Part shown: in pieces, positions 5,291 to 5,767 of the stretch | Position numbering within the stretch: the stretch's first letter is position 1 | Layout of the letters: every line of letters starts with the position of its first letter | Origin: a virus | Taxonomy: Duplodnaviria > Heunggongvirae > Uroviricota > Caudoviricetes | Length of the DNA stretch: 8,817 nt | Virus record (IMG/VR): IMGVR_UViG_2671181028_000014 | Reading direction: 5' to 3' (one strand) | The notes under the pieces: model-generated | Told to the model about the DNA's origin: nothing | Databases searched by the model: none | What the model saw: only the letters and a program-made list of their open reading frames with translations | Made by a program: the position numbers and the translations under genes

Positions 5291-5350
5291 TATTATTTAC
5301 TCATGTTCTAACTGATTTAATATTTATATCGAACACTGATAATTATTCTG
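5291..5350 (+). promoter_or_regulatory. Putative sigma70-type promoter region for the inserted lipoprotein gene (AT-rich)
   Basis: ~70% AT intergenic stretch immediately upstream of the lipoprotein gene. Weak -35-like TTTACT (5296-5301) and -10-like TAATAT (5318-5323) with a 16-nt spacer; other -10-like hexamers (TATTTA, TATATC) nearby. By eye only, no experimental support. Confidence 0.3.
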
Positions 5351-5362
5351 TTGGTTAGCTAT

Positions 5363-5701
5363 ATGAACAAAACGATTTTATTCTGCACGATTATTGCCTT
5401 AACAGGATGTAAATCTTTGGATTACGTAAAATCCGGCAAGCCTGTAATGGAAGGTAATTCATTAAAAAATATTGATGAATTGTCAGGCTGCATATCTAGA
5501 CAATGGGCTGGTAATGGAACACCTATAACATCCATTCCTATTGAGAATGGGGTAAGCCTTTTAGTTCCACAGGCTATGGGTGGGTATGATGTTGTGCTTG
5601 ATATCAAAAAAGCAGGAAATGGCAGTAGTTTTACTCTTTATGAACGCGTACCAGCATTAACGCCAAAAATTTTTGCTGATAGTGTTAATGCATGTAAATA
5701 A
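5363..5701 (+). CDS. Predicted outer-membrane lipoprotein of unknown function (moron between I and J)
   Basis: 112-aa ORF from the ATG at 5363 (the ORF track begins at an upstream TTG, 5351). N-terminus MNKTILFCTIIALTG|C has a basic n-region, hydrophobic h-region and an L-T-G-C lipobox; the residue after the lipidated Cys is Lys, not Asp, implying Lol sorting to the outer membrane. Gene is ~30-35% GC against >55% in the flanking tail genes. Followed by an intrinsic terminator. No SD is obvious. Confidence 0.8.
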   Translation: MNKTILFCTIIALTGCKSLDYVKSGKPVMEGNSLKNIDELSGCISRQWAGNGTPITSIPIENGVSLLVPQAMGGYDVVLDIKKAGNGSSFTLYERVPALTPKIFADSVNACK

Positions 5702-5724
5702 TAGTTAATCCTGCCGTAACTCAT

Positions 5725-5755
5725 GAGCCGCCTTTTGGGCGGCTTTGTTGTTTAT
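5725..5755 (+). terminator. Rho-independent terminator downstream of the lipoprotein gene
   Basis: GC-rich hairpin AGCCGCC (5726-5732) / GGCGGCT (5738-5744), 7 bp stem with a 5-nt loop (TTTTG), followed directly by a T-rich tract TTTGTTGTTTAT (5745-5755). Lies 24 nt after the lipoprotein stop and ~13 nt before the J ribosome-binding site. Confidence 0.7.
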
Positions 5756-5767
5756 GGAGTGTGAGGA

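Follow-up and report, generated by a model that had tools for sequence, protein, structure and literature searches.

In a lambdoid Escherichia coli prophage, tail genes I and J are separated by a piece of foreign, AT-rich DNA with a single gene, whose predicted product is a small lipoprotein of family phrog_914. The stretch in which it was found, hereafter the window, comprises 8,817 nt from the IMG/VR virus record IMGVR_UViG_2671181028_000014. As far as sequence can establish it, the insert is an acquired foreign single-gene cassette, with a lipoprotein signal, a history of purifying selection, and a tail-module context that recurs among its relatives. It is very probably an acquired and functional envelope-lipoprotein cassette; superinfection exclusion, a function proposed by analogy with known systems, is possible rather than probable.

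An AT-rich insertion between tail genes I and J

The stop codon of I and the start codon of J are 477 nt apart in the window, as had been stated in a preliminary description of this DNA, which compared the gap with one of ~60 nt in phage lambda; in lambda-like comparators (phages 1W and Ayreon, and the E. coli prophage L100, whose site is empty) it is exactly 60 nt. When filled and empty sites are aligned (Ayreon, 1W, L100), homology ends exactly at the stop codon of I (TAA, 5288-5290), the left edge of the insert, and restarts at ~5719-5725, before a hairpin. This places ~428 bp of foreign AT-rich DNA at 5291-5718 (+ strand), the right edge being uncertain by a few nucleotides, where it takes the place of ~14 nt (TGCAAAATGTTTTA) of the usual 60-nt spacer. 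The preliminary description had looked to such an alignment for the boundaries of the insert and for a target-site duplication: the boundaries are now defined, and no duplication was found at either junction, where there is only GTAA-level similarity.

The gap is also as sharply AT-rich as had been described. Its GC content is 0.363 for 5291-5767 and 0.346 for 5291-5718, against 0.551 in the left flank and 0.574 in the right, and the 477 nt lie 5.3 standard deviations below all other windows of that length. The deviation extends to third codon positions, with GC3 of 0.26 in the lipoprotein open reading frame (ORF), 0.53 in I, and 0.69 in J; the 72-nt leader ahead of the gene (5291-5362) has 24% GC. 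The compositional break is real and large. Extra DNA between genes that are adjacent in related phages and a composition unlike that of the surrounding genes are both marks of a moron (PMC3594210), and these two, of five such marks, are present here.

The insert is not the common state of lambdoid tail modules, a possibility that the preliminary description had itself raised against its own interpretation. Of 5426 complete E. coli genomes, 337 contain it, in a total of 349 places and at 95-100% identity. A two-flank probe, for which an empty junction is expected to measure 150+60+150 nt, detected 8688 I-J junctions in 4292 genomes, with the filled form in only 334 genomes; of the junctions sampled that lack the insert, nearly all measure 359-360 nt. 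Filled sites are therefore a minority of ~4% (about 349/8688), and ~96% are empty. Among 50,697 deposited phage genomes the insert DNA was not found, even at blastn sensitivity: the cassette is found only in prophages and IMG/VR contigs, and a tblastn search of the phage collection gave homologues only in Fraca and LMessi, at 30-33% identity. Head modules differ among the prophages with the cassette (DEC9B has an HK97-like protease-capsid fusion, whereas those of O104 and O55 are lambda-like), as do tape-measure lengths, from which it follows that the cassette has spread by recombination among lambdoid prophages. The I-J junction as a general hot spot for cargo was considered and dropped; partial-coverage matches proved to be just I genes that had diverged, or prophages with deletions in which the spacer is the usual 60 nt.

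The window as a whole is the tail module of a lambdoid prophage and contains, in order, the tape-measure gene, M, L, K, I, the gap, and the 5' part of J. With 42 mismatches over its 8817 nt, the window is 99.5% identical to a prophage of E. coli DEC9B (locus L001) integrated at dusA, which it matches at L001 14711-23527. The tail assembly gene I (4688-5290, + strand) follows K; it corresponds to the RefSeq coding sequence at 19398-20000 of L001, "tail assembly protein," and is 100% identical across E. coli loci by blastx. The window includes 5768-8817 of J (host specificity/tail tip, + strand), starting with ATG at 5768; the gene continues beyond the window end, which precedes its C-terminus, so J type was taken from the near-identical DEC9B prophage, where the full-length protein has 1131 amino acids (aa) and a C-terminus of VT1-Sakai type. 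The DEC9B prophage carries other cargo after J, at positions customary for it (L001 23941-24540 and 27430-28080): a gene for a Lom/Ail-family outer-membrane protein directly after J, and nleG7, a type III effector gene, near the attachment site.

The lipoprotein and its relatives

The gap contains one ORF, the single gene that had been claimed for it. It runs from ATG at 5363 to TAA at 5699-5701 (5363-5701, + strand), encodes 112 aa, and is listed in RefSeq as a "hypothetical protein" (WP_153274582.1). Its first 48 nt (5363-5410, + strand) encode a predicted type II signal peptide: MNK, a hydrophobic core, and a lipobox L-T-G-C, with Cys16 encoded by TGT at 5408-5410. The protein thus starts MNKTILFCTIIALTGC, followed by KSLD, and the lipobox, defined as [LVI][ASTVI][GAS]C within the first 15-25 residues, is present as MNKTILFCTIIA-LTGC16, behind a basic N-terminus and hydrophobic core. 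Judged by this lipobox, the protein would be a substrate of signal peptidase II (Lsp), and be cleaved by it. By the sorting rule for E. coli lipoproteins, Asp at position +2 after the cysteine leads to retention in the inner membrane; here that position is Lys, and the Lol system is predicted to carry the protein to the outer membrane.

Database searches give this protein a family without a function. It matches the phrog_914 profile over its whole length (E 5.7e-33, residues 1-112 on positions 1-118 of 118), and PHROG labels that family "unknown function." Pfam, NCBIfam, and PADLOC gave no family, and the one match was to VirB7, at the level of the signal peptide (E 0.084); at E ≤ 1 there was no Pfam family, Lambda_Bor and DUF3568 included, and no PADLOC-DB defence model. 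Source names within the protein cluster are all "hypothetical," "phage protein," or "lipoprotein." The identical protein is present on at least 1000 contigs. In two strains the locus tag of the gene is out of numerical order (G2583_RS31645 at L023 9073-9411 in O55:H7 CB9615; O3O_RS31910 at L022 9224-9562 in O104:H4 2009EL-2071); the ORF was therefore missed by the original annotation and added on re-annotation.

The E. coli gene is nearly invariant at the protein level. Sixty intact copies represent 13 nucleotide alleles, and I58L is the sole difference between the two main alleles of the protein. For these main alleles the nonsynonymous to synonymous divergence (dN/dS) is ~0.004/0.07, or ~0.05, and segregating changes number 11 synonymous vs. 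6 nonsynonymous; by these measures the gene is under strong purifying selection. A few E. coli copies have frameshifts or premature stops (L080, L081, L082, and two further IMG/VR loci, alleles lip6 and lip7), indicating that the gene is being lost in some prophages despite the overall selection.

An AlphaFold2 model from a 21-sequence alignment is a confident one: it has a predicted local distance difference test score (pLDDT) of 86.3 and a predicted template-modelling score (pTM) of 0.77, and its mature domain of ~97 aa is modelled as a compact alpha/beta unit in the order beta-alpha-beta4-alpha. Among solved structures, the fold neighbors include Flpp3 (the closest), the N-terminal domain of BamC, DUF302, and KA1 domains, at 6-12% identity, and the scores of Flpp3 and BamC are equalled by unrelated KA1, DUF302, and START-like domains. 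The modelled fold is thus a generic two-layer alpha/beta one that gives no mechanism, and its likeness to Flpp3 and BamC is at fold level only. There are no exclusion lipoproteins among the structural neighbors, and a profile search of PDB sequences gave no match. The best match in BFVD is an uncharacterised protein of Pseudomonas phage phiAH14a (template-modelling scores 0.70/0.83, 25% identity), which is probably a member of the family.

Relatives at 43-61% identity occur in Klebsiella, Kluyvera, Enterobacter, Citrobacter, Jejubacter, and metagenomes, and an exhaustive HMMER search extends the family to ~60 representatives, down to 22% identity; a profile scan of genome contigs by close alignment gave one species representative only, a Kluyvera. 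Across 22 diverse members Cys16, Lys35, Cys43, Gly63, and Cys111 are invariant, with Pro27 and Trp48 nearly so, and the conserved Cys43/Cys111 pair suggests a disulfide in the periplasm. Giant repetitive proteins also retrieved by HMMER (P0034 of 2161 aa, P0050 of 812 aa, and similar) were set aside as artefacts, their scores being sums of weak tandem-repeat matches to residues 23-58.

Members of the family occupy four slots of lambda-like tail operons. In E. coli the gene always lies between I and J (about 60 IMG/VR loci); elsewhere it lies between chaperone gene T and tape-measure gene H in Enterobacter and Citrobacter prophages; between K and I in Klebsiella, Kluyvera, several metagenomic phages, Fraca, and LMessi; and after J, at the prophage end, in Klebsiella oxytoca, behind a terminator-like hairpin and an AT-rich leader of 148-210 nt. 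It is co-oriented with the tail genes in every slot. Within the tail operon (T-H, K-I, and I-J) a hairpin and a T-run come after it, and then the ribosome-binding site (RBS) of the next tail gene; downstream of the K. oxytoca after-J copy an inverted repeat without an adjacent T-run is seen. On this evidence the family has long been a mobile accessory of lambda-like tail modules.

Some of these copies have peculiarities of their own. At three 60%-GC metagenomic loci (L095-L097, 6001-6339), a 25%-identical member sits between K and I with the GC content of its flanks and its ATG overlapping the stop codon of K (ATGA); to judge by sequence and position, this copy is long-resident and translationally coupled. 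In Fraca (L002 5725-5994) and LMessi (L003 5647-5994), which are of Hendrixvirinae type, a second small hypothetical ORF lies 6 nt upstream of the homologue at K-I, which makes this cassette a two-gene one. The Enterobacter T-H copy has an inverted repeat, CCTCC-TTACTTCT-GGAGG, just upstream of its ATG (L006, about 5970-6000); this could pair the Shine-Dalgarno with an anti-Shine-Dalgarno sequence, and suggests translational control of that copy.

Members at 21-25% identity are chromosomal and not of phage context, in Xanthomonadales-like genomes (Dyella solisilvae, L094 6001-6339, and three more genome or metagenome sets, L098/L099, L104, and L105-L107). The gene order there is conserved: PpnN, the lipoprotein, a convergent gene for a GspH/FimT-like minor pilin whose 3' end touches or overlaps the lipoprotein gene, and UvrB. 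This context hints at a cellular role, perhaps one connected with type IV pili or with type II secretion.

Promoter, hairpin, and expression

The preliminary description interpreted the insert as a moron with its own promoter and terminator. The upstream spacer (5291-5362, 72 nt, + strand) does contain weak promoter-like matches (TTTACT 5296-5301 with AATATT 5319-5324; GATAAT 5338-5343) and a weak RBS, and exists in five variants among the 60 copies, one of them a 1-nt T indel. The best match to a position weight matrix, TTTACT(5296)-17-AATATT(5319), scores 8.7, a value reached or exceeded by 51% of shuffles of the region; on the same scale lacUV5, lambda PR and PL, and tac score 13-16. A consensus scan of 5000-6000 found no sigma-70-like promoter on the + strand. 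The promoter-like region is thus at the level of chance. A weak promoter may be present in the 72-nt leader, without positive support from these scans.

A GC-rich hairpin with a T-rich tail, terminator-like in form, does lie at 5725-5755 (+ strand); the hairpin itself (5725-5745) is GAGCCGCC-TTTT-GGGCGGCTT, with a minimum free energy of -22.1 kcal/mol and a z score of -2.7. The empty 60-nt spacer of lambda-like phages, however, contains a homologous hairpin, AAACCGCC-TGC-GGGCGGTTT, and then the same GTTTATGGAG-GTGAGGA-ATG (examples are L004 2149-2208, L005 2173-2232, and L100 1351-1410). The terminator-like element therefore belongs to the phage backbone and not to the acquired DNA, and the cassette brings no terminator of its own at I-J, while in the K-I and T-H slots a hairpin accompanies the gene. 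Even without an insert, then, lambda-type phages have a terminator-like hairpin with a T-run between I and J, midway through the late tail operon. Cassettes may use it as a landing pad or may have left it as a scar when they were lost, or it may serve mRNA stability.

Most relatives have an upstream spacer of 0-32 nt. At K-I the distance is 0-32 nt, or gene and K stop codon overlap (ATGA), and the spacer accordingly has no room for a promoter. With the promoter match at chance, the terminator resident in the backbone, and the spacers of most relatives too short, lysogenic expression is no likelier than late co-transcription; the sequences, moreover, guarantee no other kind of expression than that with the late operon, given the constant co-orientation and the short or overlapping K-I spacers. 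Together these findings on promoter and terminator lend no support to the autonomous expression in the moron interpretation. In outline that interpretation is right, as regards the extra DNA, its deviant composition, the single gene, and the minority state of the filled site; its elements of autonomy are unsupported. Two other possible readings of the region were discarded: an RNA gene, for which Rfam on 4900-6100 gave just sub-threshold chance matches (mir-236, GcvB), and a minus-strand ORF at 5422-5607 with a minus-strand promoter-like site at 5698-5669, to which homologues give no support.

Possible functions and known systems

On the favored explanation, horizontal transfer brought an accessory cassette of one gene, broadly speaking a moron, into the I-J junction of a lambdoid prophage of E. 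coli. The 112-aa prelipoprotein that it encodes would be cleaved by Lsp and anchored via Lol in the inner leaflet of the outer membrane, with a mature domain probably stapled by a Cys43-Cys111 disulfide. Transcription would come at least from read-through of the Q-antiterminated late operon, and possibly also, at a low level in the lysogen, from a weak AT-rich promoter, ending at the resident I-J hairpin. The resulting change in the envelope would exclude lambda-like siphophages through a conserved component of host or tail tip, rather than by masking the receptor of the neighboring J. As a whole this explanation is tentative, falling somewhat short of probable. The preliminary suggestion of superinfection exclusion or host fitness is, by analogy, a reasonable one.

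A more specific form of the favored explanation is conceivable, if doubtful: phrog_914 could be a previously unrecognised family for receptor-independent exclusion, specific to lambda-like tail tips, whose members, anchored in the outer membrane, periplasmic, and derived from a cellular lipoprotein still encoded beside a FimT/GspH-like pilin gene in Xanthomonadales-like genomes, block the penetration step, by tail tip or tape measure, of incoming siphophages. Exclusion aimed at lambda-like tail tips would explain why the gene is retained inside H-M-L-K-I-J modules, across genera and in four slots.

Instead of excluding phages, the protein could be a host-fitness or virulence lipoprotein of Bor/Lom type, expressed in the lysogen to the benefit of the bacterium. 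This is unlikely, but has several points in its favor: the predicted outer-membrane lipoprotein is found in a prophage that already has lom and, in DEC9B, nleG7; the closest solved fold, Flpp3, is a Francisella lipoprotein that PDB entry 2mu4 names "Virulence Determinant"; the cassette is enriched in pathogenic lineages, for example O55:H7 and O104:H4; and chromosomal homologues exist. Against it, there is no Bor/Iss match in Pfam, and no convincing promoter for expression in the lysogen. Host-fitness cargo is usually found at prophage ends or after J, and the tight, repeated embedding of this gene in lambda-like tail operons, including the translational coupling to K in a distant relative, would be unexpected for pure cargo.

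The guaranteed late expression, with the gene always co-oriented in the late tail operon and a K-I spacer of 0-32 nt or an ATGA overlap, would fit a late lytic helper. Such a protein might alter a dying cell's envelope and so keep released progeny from being lost on debris or vesicles, a secondary role ascribed to T5 Llp, or might aid a periplasmic step linked to tail-tip proteins such as K (NlpC/P60). The gene is absent, however, from ~96% of E. coli lambdoid tail modules and from all deposited lambdoid phages, and the hairpin directly after it in slots inside the tail operon suggests that some transcripts end there, which fits non-antiterminated lysogenic transcription; a helper role is quite unlikely.

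The position of the gene directly upstream of the receptor-binding gene J in E. coli, and its product, a small lipoprotein predicted for the outer membrane, whose conserved Cys pair has a counterpart in Llp, recall the receptor-masking lipoproteins of the T5 Llp/Cor type, which would bind the receptor of the adjacent J; the lipoproteins of mEpimmI phages also exclude by receptor class (PMC11893012). If so, lipoprotein and J should vary together, and they do not. Among 38 E. coli loci with a complete J, clustering of the last 250 aa (at <90% identity) gave at least four clusters of J C-termini, while the lipoprotein is nearly invariant: its two main alleles, one residue apart, each occur with all three of the commonest J clusters, the fourth cluster consisting of two loci with one allele. 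The commonest C-terminus (VT1-Sakai type, DEC9B type) is 95-100% identical in 54 deposited phages, all of them without the cassette. Relatives at ~50% identity are found far from J, at T-H and K-I, and accompany J proteins of 1065 to about 3750 aa. Fraca has both a family member and Cor, itself a FhuA blocker, and there is no similarity of sequence or fold to either Llp or Cor. The link to the adjacent receptor-binding gene made in the preliminary description is weakened by these results, and cognate masking of the Llp/Cor type is disfavored by them to the point of being improbable. They would still allow a conserved target, one that is part of either the host envelope or lambda-like tail tips. 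That the gene is a non-functional passenger or decaying remnant is hardly credible: a few copies are frameshifted (L080-L082; lip6, lip7), its RBS is weak, and it has no clear promoter, but dN/dS is low with synonymous changes in excess, invariant residues are conserved across genera, and the exact protein recurs on very many contigs.

The gene is in ~6% of complete E. coli genomes, O55:H7 and O104:H4 among them, with relatives in many Klebsiella, Enterobacter, Citrobacter, and Kluyvera prophages, and all databases still give its product as a hypothetical protein. If the exclusion hypothesis is correct, it is an additional envelope-level resistance determinant, with a bearing on the choice of siphophages for therapy and on competition among prophages; if it serves host fitness instead, pathogenic lineages have in it a further gene for lysogenic conversion. 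In either case, one family at four slots of the same tail operon makes a clean example of moron movement within a module, and a 339-bp ORF is a small and cheap experimental target.

Several known systems resemble this one in part. The HK97 gp15 moron was reportedly studied by Juhala et al. in 2000 and by Cumby et al. in 2012. It occupies the T-H slot, is expressed in the prophage from its own promoter, excludes phages through their tails, and has chromosomal homologues, YebO (PMC3594210). The cassette described here is likewise a single small gene for an envelope protein, of deviating GC content, inside a lambdoid tail operon; its Enterobacter relative is in the same T-H slot; the family also has chromosomal homologues, here in Xanthomonadales; and exclusion that depends on the tail and not on the receptor, as with gp15, matches the absence of co-variation with J. 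The two proteins are unrelated in sequence, however. Gp15 is in the inner membrane and the family member is predicted to be an outer-membrane lipoprotein, and promoter and prophage expression are documented for gp15 only.

T5 Llp and the Cor proteins of phi80, N15, HK022, and T1 are, like the predicted product, small phage outer-membrane lipoproteins encoded beside receptor-binding or tail-fibre genes, and Llp has a functionally important disulfide. The present protein differs from them in fold, has no sequence match in PDB, and does not co-vary with a receptor-binding domain; a profile alignment with the Cor of Fraca covers the signal peptide only. Lpp021 and Lpp010 of the mEpimmI coliphages are lipobox proteins encoded in the structural gene cluster, which when expressed from plasmids exclude OmpA- and LamB-dependent phages (PMC11893012). 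The location within the structural genes of a temperate coliphage or prophage is shared, but Lpp021 and Lpp010 track receptor class (OmpA, LamB), and homology to them is not expected, since tblastn against the phage collection finds only Fraca and LMessi. Lambda Bor (Iss) is comparable as a lipoprotein of ~100 aa from a moron of a lambdoid prophage. Its gene lies near the lysis genes, is expressed in the lysogen, and confers serum resistance; the protein described here has no Lambda_Bor match. From Flpp3 of Francisella tularensis (DUF3568) and the BamC N-domain it is separated by identities of 6-12% and the lack of a DUF3568 match. Judged by its sequence, then, the protein is a bacterial lipoprotein; it belongs to phrog_914, and not to the Llp, Cor, Bor, or DUF3568 families or to any PADLOC defence family. 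The moron is a well-known kind of element; the protein family that this one carries is uncharacterised, and is unusually faithful to one phage module.

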